Both the position numbers and the translations under genes were made by a program. 64,000 nt of DNA from Escherichia phage EI-SP-GF, in sequence record OR992645.1; one strand, given 5' to 3'. This document shows positions 7,357-56,239 of this stretch, one piece after another (the first letter of the stretch is position 1; each line of letters opens with the position of its first letter). A model generated the notes under the pieces. The model saw only the letters and a list, made by a program, of their open reading frames with translations, was not told the DNA's origin and searched no databases.

Positions 7357-7362
7357 AAATTG

Positions 7363-7391: not shown

Positions 7392-7409
7392 ACATTAGTG
7401 AGGAATATA

Positions 7410-7868
7410 ATGCTAAAGGTTAAATGTCAAACAAGGTTCAACCTAAAGCGTTTAGATCGCTTTTATAAAGACCTTGTGAAACTTGAAAGCAAAACAATAA
7501 CCTACGGCTTTTATGATGAACCTCACCCGTCAGGCTTAAATATGGCAACATTGGCAGCTATTCACAACTTCGGTTGGAACGGGCTGCCTGTTCGCAATTT
7601 CATGGAGACGGCCTTTGCATTTCACAGCACGCAACTACAGACCTTGACAGAAAAATTGTTGAGAGCTATGGCTAGAGGATCAAGTGCAGAGGCTGTTCTT
7701 AGACAGATGGGGGACACAGGGGCCAAAGCTATCCAGTTTGTTATTGAGGCTGGTCAGTTTAGTAACCCTACTGTTAGTGAGCAGTGGGCACAAGAGAAGG
7801 GCTTCAACGAGGCTATGCGGCATTACGATGTGCTGCTTGAATCTGCAACCTTTAAAATTGGACAGTAA
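7410..7868 (+). CDS. head-tail joining / neck protein (hypothetical)
   Basis: ORF in track starts GTG 7398; ATG 7410 has better RBS spacing; position between head and tail genes. Confidence 0.45.
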   Translation: MLKVKCQTRFNLKRLDRFYKDLVKLESKTITYGFYDEPHPSGLNMATLAAIHNFGWNGLPVRNFMETAFAFHSTQLQTLTEKLLRAMARGSSAEAVLRQMGDTGAKAIQFVIEAGQFSNPTVSEQWAQEKGFNEAMRHYDVLLESATFKIGQ

Positions 7869-40057: not shown

Positions 40058-40834
40058 ATGCTTCCAATCCCTTTGCTAAAACTTGGTCGTCATTTCCTCG
40101 ATAAGAGGGGTGGAGTTAAGGAACTTGCTGTTCTGTCATACCCAATAGACAACAGTGACGGTACAAGCACTACAGTAGCCTATGTAAATAGCTTAGCTAT
40201 ACTTTTTGACGATGGTCAGCTTAATATTACTGGCTATAACAAGTTCGGGGAGTGTCGCACTGGGGATCGTAACCCTATAAACTACCCGAGCGAGACGGCC
40301 TGGAATGTTGATCATGTGTGGAGAGCAGACCGTGCGTTTGTGATCCGGACTTTTGATAACCAGTTTTTCTACATCGGCTGCACTGCAGGTCTTATCGGAT
40401 CCACTGCGGCAGGTGGTAACGATGTTTGCGTAAACGAGTGGACACCTCTTCCGGAACAGATTGTTAAAGGATTGCACCTTGACACCCACCCAGAGCGCCT
40501 TATTGAGGTAATGGGAGGTATTAACAACACTGTCTGGGTTATTGCAGAGGCAGAAGGTACTGGCATACTGAACCTGTATGGGTCTGGTAACAACACCTAC
40601 GGATCTTTACATGTAGATAAAAACCAGCATGCAACTCCTGTAAAGATTGGTGAAACATCAGAAAATCCTGAAACAGGCCCTTGGAAAAACCCAAGTATCA
40701 ACTGCGAGGTGCATGACAACTCTGTTATTTTCGGTGGGCCTAGAGGTTTTTGGATTGCTGGATACGACTTTCTGAGAAACAACAGTAGAAACGACCTTGT
40801 TTGGCCCCTGCTCAGATTACTCGCAACGATTTGA
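40058..40834 (+). CDS. RCC1-like beta-propeller repeat protein (possible N-terminal part of the following giant protein)
   Basis: 258 aa with GxNxxGxLG-like repeats (YGSGNNTYGSLHVD); ORF ends inside the start region of the 1626-aa ORF in another frame. Confidence 0.5.
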   Translation: MLPIPLLKLGRHFLDKRGGVKELAVLSYPIDNSDGTSTTVAYVNSLAILFDDGQLNITGYNKFGECRTGDRNPINYPSETAWNVDHVWRADRAFVIRTFDNQFFYIGCTAGLIGSTAAGGNDVCVNEWTPLPEQIVKGLHLDTHPERLIEVMGGINNTVWVIAEAEGTGILNLYGSGNNTYGSLHVDKNQHATPVKIGETSENPETGPWKNPSINCEVHDNSVIFGGPRGFWIAGYDFLRNNSRNDLVWPLLRLLATI

Positions 40835-40869
40835 AAGGCATTCCTGCAGATGAGGAGTGGAAAGGATTC

Positions 40870-43800
40870 ATGTGTGGTCCGAACGGGGCGATAATTGCAA
40901 CGCAGAGGATGCACAAGCCTAATGATCAGCAACTTGTTAACGTATTCTACGGGCAAGATGTCTGGGGAGATGATACATGGCGTTCCTTAAATATTACCTA
41001 CACCCATGAAGTAATAATGGCTCGTGGGTACGGAACAAGTGGCATTTTCTTCAATAATGGTACTAAGCAGTATCGCGGATTCTCTCGCAACCTGTGCAAC
41101 GATATTGGAGCACAATCTGCAAACAATAATCCTCGCGCCAATTTTATCCATTATCAAGCTCTTGCTACAGCCAAGTATGTTGAGCAACGACTGCCAGTTA
41201 GCTGGACAGAGAGTGTTTACTTCCAGGGTATTCATAGAGAAGGTTTTTTAGGGACCTTTACCGTTGTTAATGGCAAACTTTGGTGGTCAGGCATCCCAAG
41301 GGGAAGTTTTGCAGGATCTAATAACCTGTTTGGCGGCAGACTTAACAGCCAGGGGTTCACAGAGGTTCCTGAGAATTGGTATAAAAATGTCCCAGTAGAT
41401 AGTTGGGATATTGATGATATTTTTGACGTTAACGGTGTTAGCAGTGTTAGCAATATTTACATCGGTGACACGGTCAAGATGAAATTGAAGCCTCAACCAG
41501 AGGGGGCCACGTTCATTATTGACAAGATTGAACTGGTAAATGCTGCAGGCACGGTTGTTACAGATGCAAATTACCAATTCTCCACCAACTGGAACCACGG
41601 CGGGGCCAACGAGGTTGTTGTTACTCAGTATAACAGAAATGTTAACAGACGCGGTCTGTACTCTGTAAAAATAACCTATCATGACAAGCATGGCACGGGC
41701 AGAACTCACACAACAAGGACTTTGAACTGGAACACTATAGTTCCTGCGTATCCGTCTGATGGTAAATGGCACACTGTAGGCAGAAACAAACAGTTCCATG
41801 TTAACGATACTGTGTACTTTGGGCTTAACGCTGCTCAGCCAGCTCCAGAAAGCGATACAGCGTATATGGTTCGGCTGCACAGGCAAGATGCTGGGTCTGT
41901 TACCTACGATGTGACCCAAGAGATCTACAATCAGAGACGCTCCACGTATGACAATATTGTGAAAACACAAGCCTTGTGGGAGTTCAACCCTAACGGCAAA
42001 GGTGGTAAAATGTTGCAGGTTAACGAGCAAAACGGAACATCGTTAACTGTCCACGAACACCCAGACCCTTGGCCTGACCCTGGTAAACCTAACTCAGGTG
42101 CTCGCACACTGCAAGTTGTCAGTCATGATGTAGGCTATTTTGGGATACGTTGGGAGGCCACAGTAAAATATGCCGATGGGACAACAAACAACATAGGGAT
42201 TACGCTTGGTGGCACTAGTGAGAGTAACTCGCTGAAAATTGCCTACACTCCTAGAGGTATCTCTATTGACAACATGGATATAGTCCGTAACGGTTACGGA
42301 GATGTAAACATCAAAGTTACTCTTGGTGAGCATCTTGGCGGAGAAAGGATCATTATGTATGCCTTTGATCATGACCCTCGAACCAACGGAACTTATGCAA
42401 ATCAGGCCTGGAGTTACCTGATAAGTGCACCTGAGCCGAATACTAAAGAATTCTACTACGGTATGAAGCGAGATGTGTGCAAGAAAACAGGAACACACGA
42501 CTGGATTGCTATCTGTGTTAAAGATGAGAGAACAGCTTGGGATGAGCCTGTTAACCGCTGGTTCATAGGTATTCCCACCAGAAGTGATAAATACGTTGAA
42601 GAATATATTGTATGTATGGGCGGCACCAACCTCAACATGTGTTGGAACGAGGACGCAAACAAATATTCTGATTATGACTATATGAGGGACTACTCTTGTA
42701 ATCAATGGTTCAACCAATCCGGGTATGCTAATAGACAGTCAAGGGTAAACCCTGCAATCTTCACAGATACGCAGGTTTTCTTGACAAAACAGGCCAACGA
42801 GGTTCAGACCTTCAAGAACAACTATGATCCTAACAAGTGGTTCTACAACTGTTCCGGAGCAATATTCTGGGGGCCTGGTGAACTGCCTGATAGTGGTTCT
42901 TGCTTCGAGGCTGCAACCTATGGCAGTGACTATATTATGGGGCAGGTCAAGAAGTACAAGATGATTCCAGGACCTGAAACTTTAGGTAATGCTGTTGACC
43001 CGTACATAAATTTCGCAGCTATACATGCTAATATGGATGGAGAGAGATATCCGTTTGTTGTTCCGTTAACTTGGGGGTACAAACGTGTCGTGATGATTAT
43101 TAAATGCGATCTGATCGGGAAGCAAGTTCTTGCAGAAAATGGAACATCCACACACCCTTTTGAAGTTGCTCTGCACTACCAGTTTGCAGACTCACCATAT
43201 GCAGGGGATAAAAGAATATCCGACACAGACTCTAAGCGCTGTAAGAAAGTTTTACTTGGAGCCGGGTGGTGGTGGTACGAGTTTGATTTGACAGATAAGT
43301 TCACAGATGATACCAAAACTCTCACAGGTATCCGTCTGGACCTTGGTGAGAACATGCATAAAAGTGTTTGTGATGGTACCTACGGTGACCCTACGGTATA
43401 TCTAAAGTATGTTTCTCTTGAGCATCGCGAAGAGGATGTTTACGGTCCAAAACTGAGATTGTTTGGCGCATGGATTGCCAAAGACAGAGTAGGTATGGGT
43501 AAGAAGGTGAGAGGCTTCTTGATAGATGTAGGGACAGAGGACATGCTGGTTAATGCAGTATGGCCTGAATTACCCGGAACTCAGTGGAACAACTCTGCCA
43601 AATCTATAAACTGGTACAATATTCACAGAGCTATGTGGACCACTAACTGCTACTTGTGGAGAGAGCTTAACGATCAGGCCTTTGGCTTTAGTAACGGCAG
43701 AAGGATGGCGATCATTTGCTGGACAACATTGCAAAGATGTTATGACCATGACTATGAGATTGGTGGTAGGGCATGGAAAGATATCAGGGACAGAGTTATA

Positions 43801-45681
43801 TACAATTTTGCAGACGATAATGGTGGCGGGGCATATAACTTTGGCACAAGCCGACTTATCCATTTGAACGGATCCTCAGCCTACAAGAAAGAGGGTTACT
43901 CTGGGTCTATGATTGAGTGGGGTCTGGTGAAAGATGCTCGCGTATTGATGGGTCAACAACTTGCTGCTGCAATAGGACCTAGCGCAGTGCAGTCGGTTAA
44001 ACCAGCGTGGTTCGATATCCCAATATGGTCATCTGGAACACCAGGAACTGCGGCAATTAACCCTACCACCGGAGATTTGGAAATCTCTTGGGAGGACTTA
44101 AAGCAGGTCGGTGGCTGGGATAAGACTGGGTACCAGGTGCAATGGTGGAGATCTGACGGATCGTTAGCGGCTGATGAGTTTGTTAAGGACAATTTCTACA
44201 CCATGTCCTCTGCAAAAGCACAACAATTGTTTGGTCAGGCCACCCCGTCAACGATCACTATGTCCATGTGCTGTAAAGACAACAGGACGGGAGCTCTGGG
44301 ACCAAGGGTTGCTAAAGTTTTCTCAGGTATTAAATGGAATCTCCCTGTTCAAAGTGTTTCATGGAAGCAAATAGGTGATAACAAGCTGCTGGTTACTCCT
44401 GCCTGTCAGTTCAACGCAACTCTTAACGTTGATCCTGCTGTTGCGGCAAACTCAGCTAAAGCTTCTGACTTCTCTGTGTCTAACACTGCTATGGCAGATG
44501 TGAGGAAGATTGACACACTGAACGCCAGAATTACCTGTAAAAACACTTATGGCACATTCCAGATCATCAACAACTTCACAGATGCTGATTCTAAGGTAGT
44601 AAGGACAGCAAGCCAGACTATGCAGTTGGGCACTCTGGCATACTCTGCCCTGATCACTGAACAATCTCCTACTCTTCAGGGTGGGGGTGTTGGTAAGTTG
44701 ATCACAACACCTGTGTGGAAGCCAAATGAGTGGGTTGTGTTTGATTTGACTGTAGACTTCTCCAGTGACAATAACTGGACATGGGTAAGGAATTGCTTGC
44801 CACAGTTGATGGGCGGTCCAAATTCCGTTAGTGATAGCCACGACTCTACCGATCCGAGCGTGTTCCAGGTGGGGAAAACTCACCCAGAGACTGGGGAAAC
44901 GTTGCCTGACAGGAAGTATGCTTTAGTTTGCATCTCCAACGGCAAGGCAGATATAACCTTCTCGGGGATACACTCGTATAACGGCACTTACAACTTCTCT
45001 AAAAAGTACAGCCTCAAGGCAGGTAACATTATAGACGAAGTTGGTCCGTTATATAACCCAGGTAACGGTATTGGGATTGTAACTGGTATTCTTCCTATGC
45101 AGGAGCCTTCTATAACCCCAGCCAACGTGCCTGGTATCAGAAAAACTTGGGAAAGTAGCAATACCAATATTGCAACAGTGGATGCTACCACAGGACTGGT
45201 AACATTTAAGGCTACCGGGAATGTCACCATAAGGTTTGTAGTTACAGATGATGCAGGCCGCAAAACGTCTTCAACATCGTTTACTGTCAAACAGATGGCA
45301 CCTCAGTGGTTTATTTGGGAAGGAAATCCTCTTGACGGGGCTTACCCTAGACCTGCAGGAACGTCTAATATGAGGGTCTTTACCGGTCCAGTCATGGACA
45401 ATCCAACCACAACCACCAACCCTGCATTTTTTGGTGCTTACATACCTGAAATTATTGGCCTACCAAGGAACCAAATACAATTGCTTTTCGGGGCAGGCGT
45501 TGATGGTCTAGCCACTTTCGGGTACAGTGACAACATTGATGCAGCCAGAAGCTCGGGTTGGATTGGATTTAAGTTCCAGTGGAACCCTGGTGGTAGAACA
45601 TTAGGTCTTGCAAGTGTAGGTGTTATGCTGCCTGGCAACCAGCAATACCATCTCGAAGCTTATACAAACTTCCCTAGTTAA
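40870..45681 (+). CDS. giant virion-associated protein with propeller-like repeats and C-terminal Ig-like (BIG2-like) domain
   Basis: frame open from 40789; track start is TTG 40801 without RBS, first ATG 40870; BIG2-like segment NVPGIRKTWESSNTNIATVDATTGLVTFKATGNVTIRFVVTDDAGRKT near C-terminus. Confidence 0.6.
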   Translation: MCGPNGAIIATQRMHKPNDQQLVNVFYGQDVWGDDTWRSLNITYTHEVIMARGYGTSGIFFNNGTKQYRGFSRNLCNDIGAQSANNNPRANFIHYQALATAKYVEQRLPVSWTESVYFQGIHREGFLGTFTVVNGKLWWSGIPRGSFAGSNNLFGGRLNSQGFTEVPENWYKNVPVDSWDIDDIFDVNGVSSVSNIYIGDTVKMKLKPQPEGATFIIDKIELVNAAGTVVTDANYQFSTNWNHGGANEVVVTQYNRNVNRRGLYSVKITYHDKHGTGRTHTTRTLNWNTIVPAYPSDGKWHTVGRNKQFHVNDTVYFGLNAAQPAPESDTAYMVRLHRQDAGSVTYDVTQEIYNQRRSTYDNIVKTQALWEFNPNGKGGKMLQVNEQNGTSLTVHEHPDPWPDPGKPNSGARTLQVVSHDVGYFGIRWEATVKYADGTTNNIGITLGGTSESNSLKIAYTPRGISIDNMDIVRNGYGDVNIKVTLGEHLGGERIIMYAFDHDPRTNGTYANQAWSYLISAPEPNTKEFYYGMKRDVCKKTGTHDWIAICVKDERTAWDEPVNRWFIGIPTRSDKYVEEYIVCMGGTNLNMCWNEDANKYSDYDYMRDYSCNQWFNQSGYANRQSRVNPAIFTDTQVFLTKQANEVQTFKNNYDPNKWFYNCSGAIFWGPGELPDSGSCFEAATYGSDYIMGQVKKYKMIPGPETLGNAVDPYINFAAIHANMDGERYPFVVPLTWGYKRVVMIIKCDLIGKQVLAENGTSTHPFEVALHYQFADSPYAGDKRISDTDSKRCKKVLLGAGWWWYEFDLTDKFTDDTKTLTGIRLDLGENMHKSVCDGTYGDPTVYLKYVSLEHREEDVYGPKLRLFGAWIAKDRVGMGKKVRGFLIDVGTEDMLVNAVWPELPGTQWNNSAKSINWYNIHRAMWTTNCYLWRELNDQAFGFSNGRRMAIICWTTLQRCYDHDYEIGGRAWKDIRDRVIYNFADDNGGGAYNFGTSRLIHLNGSSAYKKEGYSGSMIEWGLVKDARVLMGQQLAAAIGPSAVQSVKPAWFDIPIWSSGTPGTAAINPTTGDLEISWEDLKQVGGWDKTGYQVQWWRSDGSLAADEFVKDNFYTMSSAKAQQLFGQATPSTITMSMCCKDNRTGALGPRVAKVFSGIKWNLPVQSVSWKQIGDNKLLVTPACQFNATLNVDPAVAANSAKASDFSVSNTAMADVRKIDTLNARITCKNTYGTFQIINNFTDADSKVVRTASQTMQLGTLAYSALITEQSPTLQGGGVGKLITTPVWKPNEWVVFDLTVDFSSDNNWTWVRNCLPQLMGGPNSVSDSHDSTDPSVFQVGKTHPETGETLPDRKYALVCISNGKADITFSGIHSYNGTYNFSKKYSLKAGNIIDEVGPLYNPGNGIGIVTGILPMQEPSITPANVPGIRKTWESSNTNIATVDATTGLVTFKATGNVTIRFVVTDDAGRKTSSTSFTVKQMAPQWFIWEGNPLDGAYPRPAGTSNMRVFTGPVMDNPTTTTNPAFFGAYIPEIIGLPRNQIQLLFGAGVDGLATFGYSDNIDAARSSGWIGFKFQWNPGGRTLGLASVGVMLPGNQQYHLEAYTNFPS

Positions 45682-45690
45682 CAGGAGACA

Positions 45691-45724
45691 AATAAAAAGG
45701 GGCCAAACGGCCCCTTTCTTTTTA
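45691..45724. terminator. bidirectional rho-independent terminator between convergent blocks
   Basis: A-tract aataaaaa, ggggcc-aaac-ggcccc hairpin, T-tract tttcttttta. Confidence 0.75.
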
Positions 45725-45727
45725 TAG

Positions 45728-45928
45728 TTAGTAATACTCCCAACATGCCCCATCTTCAGACGGCTTGACTCGCTTACCCTTGTGGTCCACATAAGTGTAA
45801 CCGCAACCTTCGCAGATAACAGGTGCCGCATAACCTTCCTTCCACTGATCTTCTGTGATCAGTCCTTCCAGATCTCTGCAGTCAAAACCAAACAACTCTT
45901 CAGAACAATTTTTGCAAAAATCAGCCAT
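45728..45928 (-). CDS. small zinc-ribbon protein
   Basis: 66 aa with CKNC ... CEGC pairs. Confidence 0.5.
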   Translation of the reverse strand: MADFCKNCSEELFGFDCRDLEGLITEDQWKEGYAAPVICEGCGYTYVDHKGKRVKPSEDGACWEYY

Positions 45929-45931
45929 TTC

Positions 45932-46339
45932 TCAGTCCTCGCATTTAACAAATTTTTCTACAGATCCACCAAGCACAGCTTGTTGTTTGATGGCACTTTC
46001 TTCATCATAGTGGATAGACTTATGTTCCGTACCTCCGAACTTACCTGTGTGGAAGGTGTGCACCCAAATCTCTTTGGGAAGGGATTTATTCTCTTCTTCC
46101 ACCAATTCCCACATACCCCACAAGTGATCTGTGATATCTTTGATGAAATATCCCTCGCCGAGGTTTGTATTCACACTATAGGCCGATTCGTGATCTCCGT
46201 GAATATAACGGAAGGCAGTATACTCTTTCCCTGGCGTGAAGTGGGTATCCATCAGTATAGCTGTTAGAGAATTAGGGTCTCGAAAGCCCAAGAACTTTAG
46301 TTTAACAATTTCGACGTTCACACTTGCAAGATTATCCAT
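45932..46339 (-). CDS. hypothetical His-rich protein
   Basis: ORF in track begins at TTG 46414; ATG 46339 (MDNLASV...) has GAGGAG RBS; contains HGDHE and HTFHTGKFGGTEH. Confidence 0.45.
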   Translation of the reverse strand: MDNLASVNVEIVKLKFLGFRDPNSLTAILMDTHFTPGKEYTAFRYIHGDHESAYSVNTNLGEGYFIKDITDHLWGMWELVEEENKSLPKEIWVHTFHTGKFGGTEHKSIHYDEESAIKQQAVLGGSVEKFVKCED

Positions 46340-46502
46340 GACAATCTCCTCTGCTTGGTTGATGAGATAATCATATATAAATCTGGTGTTGATGTCAAGC
46401 TTAATTTTAAGCAATTTGAGAGGGTATTTTATTTAGAGAGGTAATCACACAGAGGTAGGCAGTTTATGAAGGCACAGGCCTCGTTTGAGGCCTTAAAACA
46501 GA

Positions 46503-46883
46503 TTATGACGATTTGACGTAGCGCTCTGACAAAGCTGGGAAGCCAAAAGCAGCACCTACACTACCGTACGCTATCCACCATTGAAGTTCATCGTGACACC
46601 ATTTTCCGATCAGAAAGGTGCTGGGGTAGCGAGTCAGTATTTTGGCATAAGCTTTAGGGTCTGCATCCTCTGGGATAATGATGCTTGGAACATCTTTGTT
46701 ATGACCACAGCAGCAGTTTAGAGTTTTCAATCCTGCCGCCCATAGACTCATGATAGGTTTAGCCATGCACTTATCAAGGCACACACGTTTTTTGCCGTCA
46801 CGGAGCTTTTTAGGCACATCAACGATAACATTTGGATGCTTGGCACCTTTCACTTTCCAATTATAAGATTTACACTTGCACAT
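46503..46883 (-). CDS. Cys-rich putative zinc-binding protein
   Basis: 126 aa with CKCK, CLDKC and CCCGH clusters; GGAGA RBS. Confidence 0.5.
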   Translation of the reverse strand: MCKCKSYNWKVKGAKHPNVIVDVPKKLRDGKKRVCLDKCMAKPIMSLWAAGLKTLNCCCGHNKDVPSIIIPEDADPKAYAKILTRYPSTFLIGKWCHDELQWWIAYGSVGAAFGFPALSERYVKSS

Positions 46884-46913
46884 TTAGTCAGTCTCCATCT
46901 AGAAAGCCATACT

Positions 46914-47084
46914 TTACTTAAAGTCTTTGTCACCTATTACGATTGCACGAATCCACTCATTGTGATGCTCAATGGATGTAAGGTGTAACATAATGCAGTG
47001 ATTGTCATTACCGAACACGGCTCGATAAGCCTTAGCAGCACCATGATATAACTTCCACATCACGTAATGGTATCTTCGTTTCAT
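46914..47084 (-). CDS. small hypothetical protein (56 aa, below ORF-track cutoff)
   Basis: ATG at 47084 overlaps the TGA stop of the HAD gene (ATGA coupling); translated by hand. Confidence 0.3.
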   Translation of the reverse strand: MKRRYHYVMWKLYHGAAKAYRAVFGNDNHCIMLHLTSIEHHNEWIRAIVIGDKDFK

Positions 47085-47554
47085 GGTTCTTTCTCCGGTT
47101 CAGGATCTGGGTAATCTTCAATAATAAAGGGCCATCCGTTACGCTTAGCGTCAGACTTATACTCAATCTCCTTCATTGCAAACTCTAACTGATTCTTAGC
47201 CGGAATGCAAGCTGGAGAGTCATCAACCCAGATGTCTGGGTAGATATCAAACTGCGCCAGATAAGCGGCCTTCTGAACGCCTCCAGTATAAAACACTCCA
47301 ACATCGAGCTCCTTGCGCCAGTATTCGATGTCCACGTTGTCTTGAGTGATGAATCGGGAAGTCACAAGATAGACTGTCCACCCTTCCTTCTTCAGGTCCT
47401 TAATAAGGCGGGAGAAGATGAAAGGGCTCGCATTAAACGTTCCATCAAAGTCAATAGCAATGATGTGTGTGCCGTGACGAGTCTCATATGGATTACTCGT
47501 GGTGAGATTGCTGTAGTTAAAAGGTACTTCTTCTCCGCAGTAGCTGTAGTCCAT
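47081..47554 (-). CDS. HAD-superfamily phosphatase (nucleotidase-like)
   Basis: motif I IIAIDFDGTF (DxDGT), motif II VYLVTSR, motif IV DIWVDDSP; ATG 47554 preferred over GTG 47560. Confidence 0.65.
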   Translation of the reverse strand: MDYSYCGEEVPFNYSNLTTSNPYETRHGTHIIAIDFDGTFNASPFIFSRLIKDLKKEGWTVYLVTSRFITQDNVDIEYWRKELDVGVFYTGGVQKAAYLAQFDIYPDIWVDDSPACIPAKNQLEFAMKEIEYKSDAKRNGWPFIIEDYPDPEPEKEP

Positions 47555-47556
47555 AT

Positions 47557-47832
47557 TCACACCTTCTCGTTGATAAATTTACGGGCGGTTTGGTGAGTTG
47601 TTTCTGCTGTCTTCAGAATGATATTAATTTTATTGTCAAGATCATTCATCTCAGCAGTTAATTCAGGAATCTCTCCAGCATGCATGGTGAAATCATACAT
47701 AGACATACCCAGGATCTCATTGATGCGGCGGTTGCATTCTGCAGCACGCTGGTTCATTTTCCAAGCTAACACCAAAGCCTCCTGCGTAGCCTCCAGTGCA
47801 AAGTCTAATACGTCAGCTTCTTCTTTCGTCAT
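47557..47832 (-). CDS. hypothetical protein
   Basis: 91-aa ORF, tightly packed in leftward block. Confidence 0.45.
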   Translation of the reverse strand: MTKEEADVLDFALEATQEALVLAWKMNQRAAECNRRINEILGMSMYDFTMHAGEIPELTAEMNDLDNKINIILKTAETTHQTARKFINEKV

Positions 47833-47888
47833 CTCAGTCTCTCTTGTTGTATTGTTGATAGGTGTATGAATGCTTTATAACTCACCTT

Positions 47889-48455
47889 TTATTCAAACTG
47901 CAATAGCAAATCCACTACCGCGCTAGGTCTGTCAACAAATTCCCCAGGCCCACATGCCCACAGAGGGTATCCGTCTACATACCGCCAAATCCAACCTGCA
48001 GTGTGGAGTTCTAGCAGGGCAGTACCGTCTTTACTGTCAACCACTCTTTCCCACAGTGTTGGGCAGCGAAGCTTGAGGATCGGATCCCCTCCCTTATACC
48101 CATCCATGTAGATACCCATCGCAAAGTTTAACATCATCTTTTTGTGCACTGACCTCTTACTGAGGGTGCTCATCACTTCCTCTTTGTGAATGTTTGTAAG
48201 CTTCTCCTTGGCTACCCGCAGATCGTTGCAGCCATTGTTCAGAAGATCTTCCAGACACTTGATCCGAAGGTCGTGAATATCTTTGTCGTGCACCGTTGGT
48301 ACAGGGTCGTAGCGATAGAGCACCGTTGATACAAGGTTGCTCGGGTGTGGGTCTGACAGCAACCCATAACCCCAATACTCCTCTGTATCTGAAAGGACAA
48401 GACACCCAATGTCTCTGTCAAGCTTTCCTGTGTTGTAAGCCACATTGACCGCCAT
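47889..48455 (-). CDS. hypothetical protein
   Basis: 188-aa ORF with GGAG RBS. Confidence 0.5.
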   Translation of the reverse strand: MAVNVAYNTGKLDRDIGCLVLSDTEEYWGYGLLSDPHPSNLVSTVLYRYDPVPTVHDKDIHDLRIKCLEDLLNNGCNDLRVAKEKLTNIHKEEVMSTLSKRSVHKKMMLNFAMGIYMDGYKGGDPILKLRCPTLWERVVDSKDGTALLELHTAGWIWRYVDGYPLWACGPGEFVDRPSAVVDLLLQFE

Positions 48456-48457
48456 GA

Positions 48458-48703
48458 TTATAGCTCCACTAGCAAAGTGCTCTCAAAATGCCTCTCATGC
48501 AGACCGTTATAAGGAACCACTTCCACAACACCGTCGCGGATGTATGGAGCCATCATGGTGACATAATCACCGAACGGGTTGACATTATCACTAACCACGA
48601 CCACATGCTGGCCCTCCTTGGCAGAGTGCCAGATAGATCTGCACTTCATCATGTGTTCGAGAGCGCCAGGTAAAATCTTGTTACGTTCTTTACGGGTCTT
48701 CAT
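48458..48703 (-). CDS. hypothetical protein
   Basis: 81-aa ORF; start overlaps upstream stop (ATGA). Confidence 0.45.
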   Translation of the reverse strand: MKTRKERNKILPGALEHMMKCRSIWHSAKEGQHVVVVSDNVNPFGDYVTMMAPYIRDGVVEVVPYNGLHERHFESTLLVEL

Positions 48704-49149
48704 AACAGATATAGCTCCTTATGAAAGTGGGCTTTCAATTTCTCACCGAGAAACTTCTTGATACCTTCCTCTAAAGTGTTTTCGATGTAGTCCAACTTAA
48801 CTGCTTCGATGGACATATCATAGATCGCCAGCTCTAAGCTGTCAAGTCCCATCATAGCATGAACCATAAGATTTTCATCTTCAGATACATTCAGGGGACT
48901 TCCTATAACATCTGGAGGTAGAATAGTTTCCCAATTATTCTGGGCGGTAGATCTCCCGCCATCCACCTTACGTCTCAGCTCGAATGTATTCTTAGTGTAG
49001 AACACTTCATAAGAAACGATACGACTGTCACTCTCATAATGGACGAAGTTCAAGTAGGAGCCCAGCCGTAGTCGGCAAACTTCTACCCCAAACCATTGTT
49101 TCTTATAAGAATTCAGGCTAATGCTGTCGCATTCACGTTTGCTCAACAC
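48700..49149 (-). CDS. hypothetical protein
   Basis: 149-aa ORF, GTG start with AAGGAGAG RBS. Confidence 0.5.
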   Translation of the reverse strand: MLSKRECDSISLNSYKKQWFGVEVCRLRLGSYLNFVHYESDSRIVSYEVFYTKNTFELRRKVDGGRSTAQNNWETILPPDVIGSPLNVSEDENLMVHAMMGLDSLELAIYDMSIEAVKLDYIENTLEEGIKKFLGEKLKAHFHKELYLL

Positions 49150-49165
49150 GGCTCTCTCCTTCTTG

Positions 49166-49399
49166 TTAATCTTCGTAAATAATGATTTCTGCTTTAGGTT
49201 TTCGTGCTTTCAGGTCCAGCTCTATCCAGTGCACCATCGCTGTTTCAAGAAAAACAGCCTGGATGCATCCGTCTTCAGCGTGCCCTACCAGCATAACAAG
49301 ATCTTCACATTCATCATCTGCATCACGGACATACAAGATCTCTCCAGATTCAAAGTCTTTCACAACCTGATTGCTGGATAATTTACGAATTTTTGCCAT
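49166..49399 (-). CDS. hypothetical acidic protein
   Basis: 77-aa ORF with RBS. Confidence 0.45.
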   Translation of the reverse strand: MAKIRKLSSNQVVKDFESGEILYVRDADDECEDLVMLVGHAEDGCIQAVFLETAMVHWIELDLKARKPKAEIIIYED

Positions 49400-49400
49400 A

Positions 49401-49664
49401 TCAGAAACCCTCTAAAAAGCTCTTGTAGAAAATAATCTCAGTATCCACACCAGTCACGATCTTGTCGTTCCTGATTTCATCTGTAAGATAGGTGTCAAAA
49501 CGCAGCACCTGTGTGGTATTGTCACACATCCACTCGGCTGTGACCATGGCAAAAATCTTGGCATCTTCATTATCTGGTGTGAATGTTACCACCTCACCGC
49601 ATTTAAACTTTTCGATAGGTTGCGTGTTAGCTTTTGGTTCTGCAATGGTGATTTTTGTAGTCAT
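49401..49664 (-). CDS. hypothetical protein
   Basis: 87-aa ORF with GGAGGA RBS; start overlaps upstream stop. Confidence 0.45.
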   Translation of the reverse strand: MTTKITIAEPKANTQPIEKFKCGEVVTFTPDNEDAKIFAMVTAEWMCDNTTQVLRFDTYLTDEIRNDKIVTGVDTEIIFYKSFLEGF

Positions 49665-49930
49665 TACTCTTCCTCCATAGTTTCACCAAATACTTCGATA
49701 CGAGCGTCAAGCTCTGTTGCTTTCAGCTCCCCGACAAAATCTTTCAGTTCTTTCTCGTCAAGATCGTATGCCCACACACAAGATGAGCATGCAGATTTCA
49801 CGATTAGCAGTGTAGATACACGGCCTGACTCTGTAATCATGCTCACAATGGTTCCTACAGGGAACGTGTTGATAGCTTTTTTAACTGGGCGTTCAGCTTT
49901 AATTACTACCTCTGTTGCCATAAATACCAT
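49664..49930 (-). CDS. hypothetical protein
   Basis: 88-aa ORF. Confidence 0.45.
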   Translation of the reverse strand: MVFMATEVVIKAERPVKKAINTFPVGTIVSMITESGRVSTLLIVKSACSSCVWAYDLDEKELKDFVGELKATELDARIEVFGETMEEE

Positions 49931-49936
49931 CCTCTC

Positions 49937-51397
49937 TTACTTAGCATACTCGATTAATTCCACAGTTTTCCCAAAGCTCGGGATATAATTTTTATTATAC
50001 CCTTCAGTGAGAACCCATAAAGTATCGTACTTTTTCCACTTGTTGTCAACAGCCTTTTGTTCAAAGTTATGCTCAAAGTAGAGGTCGGTAAGGACGATGA
50101 CATCTTTTGCATTCGGTATGTTAGCATCCAGATACTCGAACACGCAGGCGGCTGTTGTGCCCCATGTTGAGTGGACCTCATAGTTGATCATCTCATCGAT
50201 GTTACCGCGAGTGTATACTTTAACCTCTCCAACCTCGGTTGACCAACAGAACATCGTAACCTTAAACTCTTTATACAAATTGCACAACCCGGTGATCTCA
50301 TTGAACATTTTCTTTAAAGTTCTTTGCGAGATCGATCCAGAAACGTCCAAAGCCACTACAATATCTATGGTGTTTTCCGGATTACGACCAGGAACAATAA
50401 TGTGTTGATTCTTGTTTATAGCTCTAACTTTTCGCATTGTGGTGGTCAAAGACCCAGATCGGCGACCAGGTTTTCTGTAGGTTAGCTCGGCCTTTCGTTT
50501 AGACAACATACGTTGCTTAATAATATCTATATAGTTGATTACAGGCTTGCCTCTGTTTTTGACAAACTCGCGCACCGCCTCAGGGCAACGACCTCCTGAA
50601 GCTTGCATTGCTGCTTCCAACATGTCACCAGAGTCCTGCATGGCCTGATCTTTATCAGATTGACTGATTACTGGTTGCGGCTGATCATACCCCATAGCCT
50701 TTCCAAGATCATCACTAGTGCCACCGTTCCCGCTCATGTGATCATCGGTTTGTCGTTTATCTCCTTGGGAGTTCTCGCCTTTACCATTCTTACTTTTACC
50801 GCTATTCTGATCTCTTTGTTTATCAAGAACTGCATAGACGTTCTCAGCAATCCATCCATGAAACTTCATGTCGCAGTAGCAATTAGCTAAGAAGCCAAAA
50901 GGCTTACCTTTTACGAACTCAGTGCTTTTCCCCTTCGGGAAGAAAACACAAGGAGGCTTGCTAAAGTCAACCACAAGACCTGTGTTGATAACGTGATCAC
51001 AAGCAATATTGAACAGTTCCGGCTCAAAGCTTTTACCACGGACCAGATGATCACAGATAATATGCCCCACCTCATGTGACAGAAGGAAGGCCACCTCTTT
51101 CACAGATTTTGGGGAATAGAAAACCTCAGCCATCTCAAACTGCTTGTCAGTCAGAGATGCTTTAAGAATGGTTTTACGCTCATCTGCCAACCCCATAATG
51201 AACTCAGGGCTGTAGTAGATGCGTTTATGGTCTGTTGCCATAGTGGAGCACCATGTGTGGTTTTCTACGAACTGCAACCCTGACAACAGTGTGCCATAAA
51301 ACGGCAGCTTTTCAAGAAGGTACATGCGAGCGGCCTGCAGCATTCGCAAGGCATCATCTTTTTGTGCGGTAATGATTTCTGAACTTCTGCTATCCAT
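49937..51397 (-). CDS. VWA-domain protein with N-terminal HExxH metallopeptidase-like domain (DUF2201-type)
   Basis: HExxH motif in LLSHEVGHIICDH; MIDAS motif DxSxS in VVALDVSGSIS; ATG 51397 with GGAG RBS preferred over 51418. Confidence 0.7.
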   Translation of the reverse strand: MDSRSSEIITAQKDDALRMLQAARMYLLEKLPFYGTLLSGLQFVENHTWCSTMATDHKRIYYSPEFIMGLADERKTILKASLTDKQFEMAEVFYSPKSVKEVAFLLSHEVGHIICDHLVRGKSFEPELFNIACDHVINTGLVVDFSKPPCVFFPKGKSTEFVKGKPFGFLANCYCDMKFHGWIAENVYAVLDKQRDQNSGKSKNGKGENSQGDKRQTDDHMSGNGGTSDDLGKAMGYDQPQPVISQSDKDQAMQDSGDMLEAAMQASGGRCPEAVREFVKNRGKPVINYIDIIKQRMLSKRKAELTYRKPGRRSGSLTTTMRKVRAINKNQHIIVPGRNPENTIDIVVALDVSGSISQRTLKKMFNEITGLCNLYKEFKVTMFCWSTEVGEVKVYTRGNIDEMINYEVHSTWGTTAACVFEYLDANIPNAKDVIVLTDLYFEHNFEQKAVDNKWKKYDTLWVLTEGYNKNYIPSFGKTVELIEYAK

Positions 51398-51430: not shown

Positions 51431-52420
51431 TTATTTAACGTGCTTGAAAATACCAGCCAACTCGGTCATTGTCATGCGAGTGGTCTTCATAAGGTCTGTC
51501 ATAGCCTTCTCCATGATTGGAGATACTACCATGAAGTTACCTTTGGTGAAACCTTTGTTCCAGTCGGTAACTAATAGGGGTTTAAGTCCGGCACCGAGAC
51601 GTTCACCAGTTAAAGCACAACATTTTCGAATGTATGTGCTCTTAAACTGGCTGAATGACAGATCAACTTTCATACCTGCATCGTAGAACGTCTGGCAATA
51701 GAAAGTGTAAGCTTTGGCAATCTCAACATCGTCAGGCAGTGCAGGAACCTCTTCTGTAAGCTCTTCTTCGACCCCTTGAGGCTCTTTTTCCTCTTCGTAA
51801 GCCTGTTGCGTCATCTCTTCAATCTCCTCTACTACAGGCTCGTTTACAATGTCAGAAATGTGCTTGTTGGCTCCACGATTAGCCATGAAGTTTTTAAAAT
51901 CCTGCATTGGTGACATATCTTCCTCCCATTCTTCGTCAAAGAGTGCTAGTTTATCCTCTTCCGTTCCATATTGCAAGATGAAATCTTCAAAAGTGTAATC
52001 ACCTTTCAATTTCTCCATACGCTCTTCGCTCAGGTGGAGCATCATCTGCTGGACAATTTTTCGATCAGTTTTATCTTTAATCAGGACTGCGGTCTTTTTA
52101 TCTACCAGACAATCCTTTAGAGAGTTGCATCTCAATCCCACCACACAACAGTTATCAACCGCATAAGGACCTTCATCATCTATCCGCTCTAGAGATGGGT
52201 AGAAAGGATTTCCCAGTCCGTTTTCATCTGTGTGCATGTCGAAAGGTATAAGGGTATAGTCGCATACCCCCTCTCCTAAAAGTTTTTTACCAAATAGGAG
52301 ATATTCTTCCCATGACAGGTTGAACTCTATATCTCGTTTCCGTGCATTATTCTGTTTGCGTCTGTATTTTTTGAGCAAGCGCTCTAACTCTTCTGGTGTA
52401 TAATATTTTTCAAGATTCAT
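51431..52420 (-). CDS. HNH_3-like domain protein (degenerate HNH/AP2-type, two related modules)
   Basis: SLERIDDEGPYAVDNCCVVGLRCNSLKD and LVTDWNKGFTKGNFMVVSPIMEKAM both fit the ..ID..G.Y...N..VV.....N..K pattern; ATG 52420 with AAGAGA RBS preferred over TTG 52486; central acidic linker. Confidence 0.4.
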   Translation of the reverse strand: MNLEKYYTPEELERLLKKYRRKQNNARKRDIEFNLSWEEYLLFGKKLLGEGVCDYTLIPFDMHTDENGLGNPFYPSLERIDDEGPYAVDNCCVVGLRCNSLKDCLVDKKTAVLIKDKTDRKIVQQMMLHLSEERMEKLKGDYTFEDFILQYGTEEDKLALFDEEWEEDMSPMQDFKNFMANRGANKHISDIVNEPVVEEIEEMTQQAYEEEKEPQGVEEELTEEVPALPDDVEIAKAYTFYCQTFYDAGMKVDLSFSQFKSTYIRKCCALTGERLGAGLKPLLVTDWNKGFTKGNFMVVSPIMEKAMTDLMKTTRMTMTELAGIFKHVK

Positions 52421-52451
52421 GAGTTGTCTCTTGTTCTCTGTGGGTGGAGAA

Positions 52452-52480
52452 ATCTTACCAAGCGCCTGGGGAGATGTCAA
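52452..52480 (-). promoter_or_regulatory. leftward early promoter TTGACA-N17-TAAGAT
   Basis: on minus strand: -35 ttgaca (52480-52475), 17-nt spacer, -10 taagat (52457-52452). Confidence 0.5.
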
Positions 52481-52493
52481 CCTCAAAAACGTG

Positions 52494-54761: not shown

Positions 54762-55055
54762 ATGCCGCTTAGAAGAGTAATAAACATGTTATACCAGAAA
54801 CACGAACTTTGTGCAGAAAAAGAGTTAAATTTTGACAAAGTTATCCACAGATATTGTTACGGGAAAACCGGAAGATACCTAAAAAGGTGGACTCCAGCAT
54901 TCTTTCACCCCAGCAGGAGACTAAGCCCTGAAGAAGCAACAGCAGAAAGGGTTGCATACAACTGGGAAGTTGTGTACGATATTGACAGATCCGATGTGAC
55001 ATCTGTTTTGGAAAACTTTGAAAACACTTACACACAAGTAGAGGACTTTTACTAA
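54762..55055 (+). CDS. hypothetical protein
   Basis: ORF in track starts GTG 54750; ATG 54762 with GGTGG RBS. Confidence 0.45.
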   Translation: MPLRRVINMLYQKHELCAEKELNFDKVIHRYCYGKTGRYLKRWTPAFFHPSRRLSPEEATAERVAYNWEVVYDIDRSDVTSVLENFENTYTQVEDFY

Positions 55056-56239
55056 TGTCAAGAAACGTATTTGAAAGTGGTCAAATCACTGTCCGTGAGT
55101 TGCCAGCTATTATTCAGTTTGCCCAGCGTCATAACCGATCTGTCCTGATTTTAGGACCAATGGGCGTGGGTAAGAGCCAGGTGATGAAGCAGATTGCCGA
55201 TAATATGTTCGGTGAGCGAGATGACAACCTGGTTGACGTGCGACTGTCAGATAAAGATCCTGCCGACTTATCTGGGCTACCTATCCCTGTAGAAGCGGAT
55301 GGAACTACACGTACAGTGTTTGCAATTCCAGAATTTTGGCCTTCGGATCCGGACTGGAGCGGAATTATCTTTCTGGATGAGCTTACTCATGCAGATAATT
55401 ACCTGCAAAAGGTTGCAATGCAGATTATGCTCGACCACAAGTGCGGCACCTATGCATTCCCTAAAGGCTCTGTTTTTGTGGCTGCGGGTAACCGTTCTAC
55501 AGATGGTGCGGTTCTTTCGGCGCTCGAAGCTCCTCTGGCTAACCGCTTTATCATTGTAGAGGTTACAAGCAATGCAGAGGTGTTTATTGAGGACTACGCA
55601 TTCCTTAATGGGGTGCATTCCTCTGTAATTGGATATCTGAAAAGAGTTCCATCAGCTATCGATAATTATGAGGCTATGGCTGAGATTAATTGTCCATCTT
55701 TTGCCACACCGCGATCTTGGGTTGCTGCATCTGATATCTTGCACGATTTTGACAGCGGTATTATTTCTGACGCTATGGCCCGTGTTCTTCTGCAAGGTGC
55801 TATTGGTCACACTGCAGCGGTAGAGATCTGGACCTACCACACCAAGAAACGCAACTTACCGGAAATCGGTCGGATTATGGCAGGTGGTTGCAAAGAATAC
55901 GTAGGTCCTAAGCAGCCAGACATCTTGTGGATTCTTGGATCTGAAGGTTGTATCGCTATTCGTAATATGATGGAAAATGCAAGTATCTCTGACGAAGATC
56001 TTGTCAGCTGCGTGGCAAACTTCCTCGATTTCCTTTGGGAAAACTTCAAGGACGAGAACCGAGATTTTGTATTCTCAGTCTTTATGGCGATGATGAAACC
56101 TAACGCCTTAGGAAATGCCTTGCTTATCGGTAAAGGGCGTGACAAGATCGTTGCTCAACTGATCAAAGCGTACCCAAACCTGATGAAGATTGTAAAAGAG
56201 TTTGGTGAAGAGTTTAGCGCCATTTTAGCTAAAGCTTGA
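55055..56239 (+). CDS. MoxR-type AAA+ ATPase
   Basis: Walker A GPMGVGKS, Walker B IIFLDEL, sensor-1 AAGN and Arg-finger-like ANRF. Confidence 0.75.
   Translation: MSRNVFESGQITVRELPAIIQFAQRHNRSVLILGPMGVGKSQVMKQIADNMFGERDDNLVDVRLSDKDPADLSGLPIPVEADGTTRTVFAIPEFWPSDPDWSGIIFLDELTHADNYLQKVAMQIMLDHKCGTYAFPKGSVFVAAGNRSTDGAVLSALEAPLANRFIIVEVTSNAEVFIEDYAFLNGVHSSVIGYLKRVPSAIDNYEAMAEINCPSFATPRSWVAASDILHDFDSGIISDAMARVLLQGAIGHTAAVEIWTYHTKKRNLPEIGRIMAGGCKEYVGPKQPDILWILGSEGCIAIRNMMENASISDEDLVSCVANFLDFLWENFKDENRDFVFSVFMAMMKPNALGNALLIGKGRDKIVAQLIKAYPNLMKIVKEFGEEFSAILAKA

Follow-up and report, generated by a model that had tools for sequence, protein, structure and literature searches.

Twelve small conserved genes in the leftward operon of the rV5-like Escherichia phage EI-SP-GF, a probable accessory block

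The window analysed, a 64,000-nucleotide stretch of Escherichia phage EI-SP-GF (OR992645.1), belongs to a Vequintavirus (rV5-like E. coli myovirus) and is 98% identical to ECP32. Positions 45,728–49,930 had been described in an initial annotation as a leftward cassette of nine small ORFs with the layout of early host-takeover or anti-defence genes, which raises the question of what this block encodes and when it is of use to the phage.

Gene content, conservation and origin of the block

The minus strand of the region is filled exactly by a leftward run of small ORFs, in agreement with the proposed limits. The count of nine had to be corrected to twelve genes (g1–g12, Table 1), the same twelve being annotated in relatives, all as hypothetical, and the size range first given (56–188 aa) holds for the full set. 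GC skew is negative over 44–52 kb, as expected where a block is coded on the minus strand. The tight coupling initially described was found in part. Successive gaps were −1, +1, 16, −4 and +2 nt from g1 to g6, and 56, −4 (+2 from the ATG), −4, 30, 163 and 3 nt from g6 to g12, with the 163-nt g10–g11 gap counted from the g11 ATG used in relatives. Seven of the eleven junctions thus overlap or are separated by at most 3 nt, and the other four span 16, 30, 56 and 163 nt. A conserved sigma-70 promoter lies within the longest gap, so that the block does not form a single, uniformly coupled cassette.

Table 1. Features of the leftward operon and its surroundings, with counterparts in rV5 (sizes from PMC3606486) and Bas54.
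Feature	Position	Strand	Size (aa)	rV5 (aa)	Bas54	Remarks
MoxR ATPase gene	55055–56239					Validated anti-DS-28 (anti-defence) gene of the window
Operon promoter	52452–52480	−		P011		TTGACA, 17 nt, TAAGAT; TG upstream of −10
gA	51431–52408	−		gp11	bas54_0056	First operon gene, Srd-like; annotated 'anti-sigma factor'
gB	49937–51397	−		gp12/13	bas54_0055	DUF2201_N metallopeptidase + VWA-like domain (Pfam)
g1	49664–49930	−	88	gp14 (85)	bas54_0054	Orphan; PHROG 10698, function not annotated
g2	49401–49664	−	87	gp15 (87)	bas54_0053	Orphan; PHROG 12861; dN/dS 0–0.04
g3	49166–49399	−	77	gp16 (77)	bas54_0052	Orphan; PHROG 12046; dN/dS about 0.14
g4	48700–49149	−	149	gp17 (149)	bas54_0051	GTG start; soluble; PHROG 6790
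g5	48458–48703	−	81	gp18 (81)	bas54_0050	PHROG 4868; dN/dS 0.07–0.19
g6	47889–48455	−	188	gp19 (188)	bas54_0049	Most constrained gene, dN/dS about 0.01
g7	47557–47832	−	91	gp20 (91)	bas54_0048	Orphan; dN/dS 0–0.05
g8	47081–47554	−	157	gp21 (154)	bas54_0047	Predicted capless (C0) HAD-superfamily phosphatase-like enzyme
g9	46914–47084	−	56	gp22 (56)	bas54_0046	Orphan; 6 His; PHROG 12006
g10	46503–46883	−	126	gp24 (126)	bas54_0045	Cys/His-rich, CxC...H...C...CCCGH
Hairpin	46476–46493	−				7 bp, GC-rich; directly 3' of g10 stop codon; without U tract
Internal promoter	46370–46398	−		P025		Sigma-70-type; TTGACA, 17 nt, TATGAT; 11/12 match
g11	45932–46339	−	135	gp25 (135)		Two-module protein in variable slot
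g12	45728–45928	−	66	gp26 (66)	bas54_0042	Four-Cys zinc-ribbon-like, CxxC...CxxC
Terminator	45694–45719	both		t026/t027		Bidirectional, intrinsic; between g12 and convergent tail-fibre gene

The counterpart in rV5 is genes 14–26 of the transcription unit 'genes 11–26', with the same gene order and similar sizes, and with the bidirectional promoter pair, P025 and the t026/t027 terminator as found here. It differs in that rV5 lists one more ORF, of 49 aa and overlapping (gene 23), and in that its metallopeptidase gene is divided between genes 12 and 13; no function was given to genes 14–26 by Kropinski et al. 2013 (PMC3606486). In Bas54 (MaxBurger), bas54_0042–0054 comprise 11 orthologues with 88–100% identity in the same operon layout, and differ at the g11 slot, which is occupied by two ORFs, one of 109 aa and one of 62 aa limited to the N-terminal module.

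Among 120 matching phage records, 111 span 80% or more of the region at 90–98% identity, and the reading frames are unbroken in more than 100 genomes. Comparisons with six Vequintavirus relatives, which included tens of synonymous changes per gene, gave dN/dS values of 0.00–0.25 except for 0.30 (g1 against L003; elsewhere 0.02–0.04 where informative) and 0.45 (g9 against L001; mostly 0.08–0.17), which rest on two and three substitutions, respectively, in comparisons with nearest relatives. Each ORF matched a PHROG family (E 1e-32 to 1e-135), and most starts are preceded by a purine-rich, Shine-Dalgarno-like stretch. All 12 ORFs are real genes under purifying selection. That they are spurious, or the region a non-coding spacer, could be argued from several being shorter than 90 aa and from the lack of a database function; set against the constraint, the intact frames, the start-codon context and the PHROG matches, this reading has practically no probability.

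The complete block was found in Vequintavirus only, where it is conserved rather than variable, with the exception of the g11 slot. About 900 phage records match part of it only, and g8 and g12 account for nearly all of these. At the sensitivity used, g1, g2, g3, g5, g7 and g9 appear restricted to the genus. The last of these, with its six histidines in 56 residues, is the His-rich protein that had been pointed out. For g7, only sub-threshold matches to helical-repeat and alanine-zipper models were obtained. An exhaustive HMMER search with g6 returned seven hits only, including two full-length remote homologues of about 200 aa without a Pfam domain. The N- and C-terminal halves of g11 match different PHROGs, and its modules are common to other phages; in PDX, bov22_2 and Bas54 a 109-aa ORF takes the place of the gene, together with an ORF restricted to the N-terminal module. 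For nine of the twelve genes, the assignment is one of class and not of mechanism, and no activity is assignable.

Transcription signals and upstream genes

The leftward promoter reported upstream of the block was recovered in a consensus scan as a conserved sigma-70-type match (10/12 positions plus TG), equivalent to P011 predicted in rV5 Table S4 (PMC3606486). Across eight genomes its −35 hexamer is invariant and TGn-TA(A/C)GAT is kept, while the spacer varies. The internal promoter corresponds to P025 of the same table; TTGAC of its −35 element is invariant in seven of seven genomes, with the sixth base deviating in V18, and the promoter is kept even in genomes with the downstream gene replaced. 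The terminator was detected on both strands by a terminator scan, and its sequence is identical to the entry in rV5 Table S4. The hairpin downstream of g10 is identical in all six genomes whose aligned stretch covers it, and its folding energy is unremarkable (z −1.5).

The first operon gene, gA, matched PHROG families of HNH / endonuclease VII-like, 'decoy of host sigma70' and Srd anti-sigma proteins, with no match in Pfam, and rV5 gp11 has been called a probable Srd homologue (PMC3606486). The second, gB, matched PF13203 (1.8e-28) and PF09967 (3.5e-11). Host sigma-70 RNA polymerase would initiate at the extended −10 operon promoter, and transcription would pass the Srd-like and VWA/metallopeptidase genes before the 12 small genes, with the internal promoter presumably boosting the last two, and would end at the bidirectional terminator.

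The rV5 late motif TGGTAAAATA yielded 21 matches against 5.9 expected, 19 of them on the plus strand, and a motif scan placed none of the 21 in the cassette. Early expression is suggested by promoter type only. As consensus sigma-70 promoters occur throughout the rV5 genome, late region included (PMC3606486), promoter type is a weak clock; no time-resolved transcript data for any Vequintavirus were found in the searched literature.

Dispensability and possible roles in infection

HIDEN-SEQ transposon sequencing of Bas54 (bioRxiv 10.1101/2025.11.20.689424) found every cassette orthologue non-essential on K-12, with 79–100% of TA sites hit (17/17 for g1, 30/33 for g4 and 9/9 for g12); the orthologues of g2, g3, g5, g6, g7 and g9 were all in this category, and one variant-slot gene was called "reduced fitness". 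The gA orthologue was likewise non-essential, and that of gB was dispensable on K-12. These essentiality data pertain to Bas54, not to EI-SP-GF. The region is probably a dispensable, conserved accessory block that makes up the distal two-thirds of the rV5 unit 'genes 11–26' and is driven by a host-type promoter. Its products would be soluble non-virion accessory proteins, unneeded on the laboratory host, as shown for the Bas54 orthologues. Because the genes are dispensable in the laboratory yet under strong purifying selection, the proteins most likely give a conditional benefit, which they would exert through an early modification of the infected cell. Strong conservation of laboratory-dispensable genes is compatible with many functions, and the block represents ordinary phage dark matter that is already annotated.

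In line with the initial view that no product carries a structural motif, none of gp14–26 is labelled "MS evidence" in the rV5 gene table, and no membrane-spanning segment was found in the cassette products (maximum Kyte-Doolittle 19-residue window ≤1.17). Structural or lysis genes would be suggested by database labels on g4, namely 'tail protein' (PHROG 6790, V18 and 4MG records) and 'holin' (SYGMH1). Both labels proved unsupported. A holin is excluded by the lack of a hydrophobic segment, and g4 lies on the strand opposite the structural module, with the late motif missing; moreover, its orthologue is not needed for plaques, whereas true tail genes are essential in the same screen. We consider a structural or lytic role very improbable.

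A further possibility is that one or several of the 12 proteins inhibit host immune systems. The genes are small, dispensable, mostly genus-restricted and promoter-proximal to an Srd-like host-takeover gene. The slot that follows the Srd-like and metallopeptidase genes is filled by other small genes in the sister genera (Mydovirus KB57, Seunavirus 4MG), with g8 and g4 the only genes in common; in 4MG, the g4 homologue lies directly 3' of the metallopeptidase gene (hhalign 92%, E 6e-7). Furthermore, the g11 position is swapped among close relatives with the promoter retained, unrelated virulent enterobacterial phages share g12 horizontally, and the MoxR ATPase gene nearby has been validated as anti-DS-28. 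Phage accessory regions and counter-defence clusters (bioRxiv 10.1101/2023.04.06.535777) likewise consist of short genes that are dispensable and occupy a fixed slot, with cargo varying among related genera; rV5-like phages are not mentioned in the main text of that study by Silas et al. Unlike in those clusters, the cargo here is almost fixed within the genus and strongly constrained, 11 of the 12 genes being near-universal, whereas typical anti-defence loci turn over fast. An exceptional sensitivity to restriction-modification has also been reported for Vequintavirinae (PMC8594841), a CBASS operon provides defence against these phages (PMC12991175), and no cassette gene showed similarity to annotated counter-defence PHROGs.

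The sole conditional screen published, on the single clinical isolate CFE311, covered 11 of the 12 genes through Bas54 orthologues, g11 falling outside as Bas54 carries only the variant at its slot (bioRxiv 10.1101/2025.11.20.689424). No cassette orthologue was significantly required, none reaching q < 0.05. That of g4 was depleted (log2FC −2.28, p 0.028, q 0.195) to the same extent as the adjacent VWA/metallopeptidase gene, which is conditionally required there (−2.20, q 0.009), and those other than g4 and g3 lay between −0.09 and +0.47. The significant hits from the window were the MoxR ATPase and VWA/metallopeptidase genes, and the proposal of the cassette as the most likely site of inhibitors in the window found no support. 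Inhibition of host immunity is accordingly a doubtful, though not negligible, explanation. From the proposed early host-takeover or anti-defence layout, the dispensable, promoter-led genes without late motif are retained, and the anti-defence part is unsupported in CFE311.

The phosphatase-like and Cys-rich proteins

The HAD phosphatase initially noted was confirmed as g8, with a real HAD motif, an assignment absent for gp21 from the rV5 paper (PMC3606486). No curated HAD model passes its threshold (TIGR01484 scored 14.8 bits where 41.8 are required; PF06189 at E 0.18), and Foldseek gave weak E-values, the lowest being 4.8e-3. Among the structural neighbours are the 3'-phosphatase domain of T4 polynucleotide kinase, KDO-8-P phosphatase and a 5'(3')-deoxyribonucleotidase-like protein. 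Compared with capless (C0) HADs (T4 PNK 3'-phosphatase domain, KdsC/YrbI KDO-8-P phosphatase and MDP-1), g8 shows 13–21% identity and has a core of about 105 residues only, plus a genus-specific 30-residue N-terminal extension. The protein is predicted to be a catalytically intact capless phosphatase, with Asp35 as the nucleophile, Asp37 as the acid/base, Thr65 and Lys95 as putative phosphate-binding residues, and Asp111/Asp112 as putative Mg2+ ligands.

To judge from gene neighbourhoods in other phages, its substrate would most likely be a nucleotide or a phosphorylated nucleic-acid end: in an N4-like phage and in Vibrio phage CHOED, homologues are found close to genes for DNA polymerase or exonuclease, and the 4MG homologue adjoins a weak MazG-like gene (19.5 against 22 bits, below threshold). 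The block could accordingly be an auxiliary nucleotide or nucleic-acid metabolism module, with g8 and the zinc proteins tuning pools or processing ends; homologues of g10 on phage contigs of about 120–140 kb also share a region with DNA polymerase and NT5C-like genes. This adjacency is, however, inconsistent between contigs, and g8 and NT5C are not homologues. An enzyme signature is present in g8 alone, all cassette genes are dispensable, and in rV5 a separate set of kinase, metallophosphoesterase and RNA ligase genes lies outside the block. Such a module is rather unlikely.

Within the preferred accessory block, the two Cys-rich proteins first reported, g10 and g12, are both present. The former has eight cysteines; its conserved positions are C2, C4, H16, C39 and H61, and most homologues retain the CCC of CCCGH. 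Its structure model is poor. Zinc binding by both is plausible from their conserved Cys and His residues, and the two are probably small proteins stabilised by zinc, with a host or phage macromolecule as binding partner. The four cysteines and one histidine of g12 (C5, C8, C39, C42 and H49) are invariant in rV5-like, T5-like and FelixO1-like homologues of 56–67% identity, which include small ORFs of the T5-like tRNA region (T5 p060 orthologue) and VOG1507 of FelixO1, labelled 'phage conserved protein'. Their contexts are unrelated, namely a tRNA cluster in T5-like phages and a position adjoining a putative phosphatase in FelixO1-like phages.

Gene content of the cassette and its relatives

The cassette on the minus strand at 45728-49930 was recognised as the distal part of a host-promoter-driven operon encoding dispensable, soluble, non-structural accessory proteins. 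It carries twelve genes for proteins of 56-188 aa, numbered g1 to g12 in transcription order, rather than the nine counted in the initial annotation. The tight coupling ascribed to them there holds for seven of the eleven junctions, which overlap or nearly abut, whereas the other four do not (-1, +1, 16, -4, +2, 56, -4, -4, 30, 163 and 3 nt from g1 to g12). Both Cys-rich proteins were confirmed as g12 and g10, the His-rich protein corresponds to g9, with six His in 56 residues, and the proposed HAD phosphatase is g8, in which the DxDGT motif was found. The ORFs are real protein-coding genes. Comparison with six relatives gave dN/dS values of 0.00-0.25 in almost all cases, g6 being the most constrained gene of the cassette (~0.01), and the exceptions, 0.30 (g1) and 0.45 (g9), derive from comparisons with two or three substitutions. 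GC skew was negative at 44-52 kb and positive elsewhere in the window, as expected from a leftward-coded block, and Rfam and tRNA scans of the cassette region were empty.

Features of the operon and its surroundings, with positions in the window
Feature	Coordinates	Strand	Description
MoxR orthologue	55055-56239	plus	MoxR-annotated AAA+ ATPase
gA	51431-52408	minus	PHROG matches to Srd anti-sigma and endonuclease VII-like families; co-directional with cassette
gB	49937-51397	minus	Pfam DUF2201_N metallopeptidase and VWA-like domain; co-directional with cassette
g1	49664-49930	minus	
g2	49401-49664	minus	
g3	49166-49399	minus	
g4	48700-49149	minus	
g5	48458-48703	minus	
g6	47889-48455	minus	
g7	47557-47832	minus	
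g8	47081-47554	minus	predicted HAD-type phosphatase
g9	46914-47084	minus	His-rich
g10	46503-46883	minus	probable zinc protein
Hairpin	46476-46493	minus	AGGCCTC-AAAC-GAGGCCT
g11	45932-46339	minus	two modules
g12	45728-45928	minus	probable zinc protein
Bidirectional intrinsic terminator	45694-45719	both	separates g12 from convergent tail-fibre gene
Tail-fibre ORF	40801-45681	plus	1626 aa
Tail-fibre ORF	40058-40834	plus	258 aa

The 4.2-kb cassette was matched by 120 phage records, of which 111 aligned over 80% or more of its length with 90-98% identity; all were Vequintavirus (rV5-like) myoviruses, with Escherichia phage ECP32 as the closest (98.3%). Annotated relatives list about twelve "hypothetical protein" genes in this stretch (11 to 14 by record), flanked on one side by a large lateral tail-fibre gene and on the other by a gene pair for a metallopeptidase and an anti-sigma factor. 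The complete block was restricted to Vequintavirus in a tblastn search with the twelve proteins concatenated, and nearly all of the ~900 phage records with partial matches are explained by g12 and g8. The corresponding operon of Mydovirus KB57 and Seunavirus 4MG has the Srd-like and metallopeptidase genes at its start and different small genes after them; the cassette shares only g8 and g4 with these two phages. The slot is thus conserved, with a cargo that is genus-specific yet stable inside the genus.

Several records warrant separate mention. Sixteen GenBank entries named "Campylobacter phage" (MG065644, MG065662 and others) match the full-length cassette at ~93% identity; Campylobacter jejuni is the listed host in 15 of the 16, and these host labels look doubtful. 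In SYGMH1 (locus L002, 4804-5185) a frameshift interrupts the g10 orthologue, and the V18 record (locus L012, 4268-4734 and 5878-6349) has disrupted orthologues of g4 and g8; these lesions are sequencing errors or else reflect the natural loss of genes that are dispensable. An origin of g1, g2 and g3 (49166-49930) as old tandem duplicates was considered on account of their similar size (77-88 aa) and residue pattern, yet BLASTP returned nothing, and the best hhalign pair, g2-g3, with P 0.005 over 67 columns, was not significant among 66 comparisons.

Transcription unit and expected timing

Upstream of the cassette, the operon begins with gA, an Srd-like gene, and gB, a VWA/metallopeptidase gene. 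The promoter preceding gA reads TTGACA-17-TAAGAT with a TG extension, and across eight genomes its hexamers are conserved and its spacer is variable. An internal, near-consensus promoter (11/12) lies inside the 163-nt gap preceding g11; the TTGAC of its -35 element did not vary among the seven genomes compared, two of which have the downstream gene replaced. Identical elements were described for phage rV5 as the transcription unit "genes 11-26", with promoters P010/P011 and P025 and terminators t026/t027 (PMC3606486), the product of the first gene, gp11, being regarded as a probable Srd homologue (PMC3606486). Gene sizes and gene order assign g1-g12 to rV5 genes 14-22 and 24-26. The equivalent of a further rV5 promoter, P020, which falls within the 3' end of g6, was not counted, its spacer here being ~21 nt and its -10 hexamer degraded.

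The late-promoter motif of rV5, TGGTAAAATA, searched with at most one mismatch, matched 21 times in the window versus 5.9 expected. Nineteen of these matches lie on the plus strand ahead of or among structural genes (e.g. 7383, 10903, 25054 and 30564), and none of the 21 falls in the cassette. The latter combines a conserved sigma-70-type promoter upstream with the absence of the late-promoter element, the two promoter features expected of early phage genes read by host RNA polymerase. The literature searched yielded no transcriptome of any Vequintavirus, and early expression of the cassette is inferred from these promoter sequences.

Two further features of the unit were recorded. The mechanically called ORF of gA extends over 51431-52486, so that its TTG start precedes the operon promoter; relatives use the ATG at 52408, which is the plausible start. 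In addition, a 7-bp GC-rich hairpin begins 9 nt past the stop codon of g10; it lacks a U tract, is identical in the six relatives whose alignment covers it, and may act as a processing site, as a stabiliser or, ahead of the internal promoter, as a weak terminator.

Protein assignments

Scans of all twelve proteins with Pfam, with NCBIfam and with PADLOC, a library of defence rather than anti-defence models, returned nothing above threshold, and each protein matches a PHROG family labelled "unknown function", except for g4 (PHROG 6790, "tail protein"). The clearest assignment was obtained for g8. Its motif I, DxDx(T/V), is present at the end of strand 1 as D35-F-D37-G-T39, and motifs II (Ser/Thr, T65), III (Lys, K95) and IV (DD, D111 and D112) follow in order. 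A first alignment of seven sequences, with homologues from Mydovirus, an N4-like phage and a Vibrio phage, showed D35, D37, T39, T65, K95, D111 and D112 to be invariant; among 57 diverse homologues, D35, D37, T39, T65, K95 and D111 remained so, and D112 was found in at least 90%. The AlphaFold2 model (mean pLDDT 89.4) displays a Rossmann-like α/β HAD core fold. Curated HAD sequence models stayed below threshold (TIGR01484 at E 0.022 and 14.8 bits against a cut-off of 41.8; PF06189 at E 0.18), as did PDB searches with the single sequence and with the 7- and 57-sequence profiles, AphA and BT_0820 appearing at E 0.7-0.8 in the profile searches. From the invariant residues and the predicted fold, g8 is assigned as a putative capless HAD-type phosphatase with its catalytic residues intact, despite no curated model reaching threshold.

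A profile search with g8 retrieved 521 small proteins, of ~100-190 aa among the matches listed, and none of the 120 members listed of these 521 contains a Pfam domain. The present work newly places g8, gp21 of rV5, among more than 500 small HAD phosphatases of phages, a family whose examined members lack Pfam coverage. Elsewhere, g8 homologues neighbour a weakly matching MazG-like gene (4MG) and polymerase or exonuclease genes (other phages), which hints at nucleotides or nucleic-acid ends as candidate substrates.

The two Cys-rich proteins are probably zinc proteins. In g12, the knuckles C5-x2-C8 and C39-x2-C42 and residue H49 are invariant across rV5-, T5- and FelixO1-like homologues sharing 56-67% identity; neither Pfam nor the PDB, the latter also searched by profile, gave a match, and in a T5-like phage the homologue sits among tRNA genes. 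For g10, C2, C4, H16, C39 and H61 are conserved and C57-C59 is retained in most of 12 sequences. Its model is too poor to judge ligand geometry (pLDDT 58.9, below 50 around residues 57-64), its homologues form only 11 clusters, and neither a fold match nor a profile match in the PDB was obtained. One metagenomic contig suggested that g10 is functionally linked to an NT5C nucleotidase; this was rejected because a second contig does not reproduce the adjacency.

Several database labels attached to this operon, namely "tail protein", "holin" and "HNH endonuclease", were found to be misleading. No hydrophobic segment was detected in any of the twelve proteins, and g4 has no transmembrane helix (top 19-residue Kyte-Doolittle mean of 0.99), so the "holin" label of its orthologue in SYGMH1 was ruled out. 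The reading of g4 as a virion tail protein, which rests on PHROG 6790, was also rejected: the "MS evidence" label of the rV5 gene table is absent for gp14-26, including gp17 (g4), and bas54_0051 of phage Bas54 carries insertions at 30 of 33 TA sites. In 4MG, the g4 homologue directly follows the metallopeptidase gene (hhalign 92%, E 6e-7). Databases label gA and gB variously as "anti-sigma factor", "HNH endonuclease" or "anti-termination", and these labels are unreliable.

An exhaustive HMMER search with g6 gave seven matches, of which only two were remote full-length homologues, both domain-free. Residues 135-179 match segments that recur six to eight times in each of three proteins (871-2365 aa), two with Tectonin domains; these short matches were set aside, the stretch being absent from the full-length homologues.

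The g11 protein consists of two modules, and PDX, bov22_2 and Bas54 carry instead another ORF together with one that holds the N-terminal module only. At this swap site (45932-46339, minus, in the window; 7193-7742 and 396-915 in the compared loci L011 and L018), some Vequintaviruses encode the 135-aa two-module protein, and the alternative slot contains a 109-aa Cys/His-containing ORF and a 62-72-aa ORF matching only the N-terminal module. Both arrangements lie downstream of the same retained promoter.

Dispensability and anti-defence

A 2025 preprint reports transposon-insertion sequencing (HIDEN-SEQ) of Bas54, phage MaxBurger, MZ501093 (bioRxiv 10.1101/2025.11.20.689424), which shares 88-100% identity with eleven of the cassette proteins. 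On K-12, its thirteen cassette genes, bas54_0042-0054, and the metallopeptidase and anti-sigma genes were non-essential, with insertions at 79-100% of TA sites, the exception being the variant-slot gene bas54_0043 with "reduced fitness" (bioRxiv 10.1101/2025.11.20.689424). Of the eleven conserved orthologues, ten had log2FC values of -0.09 to +0.47, or -1.32 (not significant) in the case of g3, in the clinical isolate CFE311, and that of g4 had -2.28 (p 0.028, q 0.195); q was at least 0.195 for all cassette orthologues in this single reported isolate (bioRxiv 10.1101/2025.11.20.689424). Depletion reached -2.20 (q 0.009) for the metallopeptidase gene and was strong, -7.23, for that of the MoxR ATPase, and MoxR (bas54_0063) and bas54_0140 were validated as needed against the predicted defence system DS-28 (bioRxiv 10.1101/2025.11.20.689424). 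The MoxR orthologue of the window is identical to bas54_0063 at 393 of 395 aligned positions, with Pfam AAA matches that are sub-threshold only; its presumed partner gB lies on the divergent operon.

Within the window, the anti-defence locus with experimental support is the pair of MoxR and gB. The proposal that the cassette is the window's best site for new inhibitors is not supported, as the sole functional data favour this pair, and the anti-defence expectation moves there from the small genes. Viewing the latter as early accessory genes is reasonable and partly supported, the accessory part by the dispensability of the orthologues and the early part by the promoters. Genes, operon, promoters and terminator were already published for rV5 in 2013, and orthologue dispensability in 2025; the HAD assignment and the corrected labels are small additions. 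As it stands, the cassette is routine phage "dark matter".

Because only one wild host was reported, an anti-defence role of single genes, above all g4 and g12, was kept in consideration. It seems unlikely that at least one cassette protein, with these two as candidates, founds a new counter-defence family. The candidacy of g4 derives from its homologue directly following a gB-type gene in a sister genus, its CFE311 depletion, similar to that of gB, and the role of MoxR against DS-28; g4 could belong to a MoxR-VWA anti-defence machine, as its third component or as a substrate adaptor. The 66-aa, zinc-ribbon-like g12, kept across three phage groups, might target a conserved enterobacterial factor. 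If g4 or g12 were inhibitors, they would provide useful handles on the defence systems of pathogenic E. coli, and Vequintaviruses are common therapeutic and biocontrol candidates.

As regards known defences, Vequintavirinae are exceptionally sensitive to restriction-modification according to the BASEL study (PMC8594841), and a CBASS operon defends against Bas48-59 (PMC12991175). The trigger of a retron is a methyltransferase and that of DRT10 is Bas52_0087, and no escape mutation mapping to the cassette was found in the searched literature.

Finally, relatives encode the lateral tail fibre, which has a Big_2 (intimin-like) domain, as one ORF of 1875-1878 aa. In the window the gene is split into two overlapping ORFs by a 1-nt indel near 40807 (GGCC-CC) relative to Bas54, which is either a frameshift or allelic difference or the result of a sequencing error. 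On K-12, its Bas54 orthologue was called non-essential (bioRxiv 10.1101/2025.11.20.689424).
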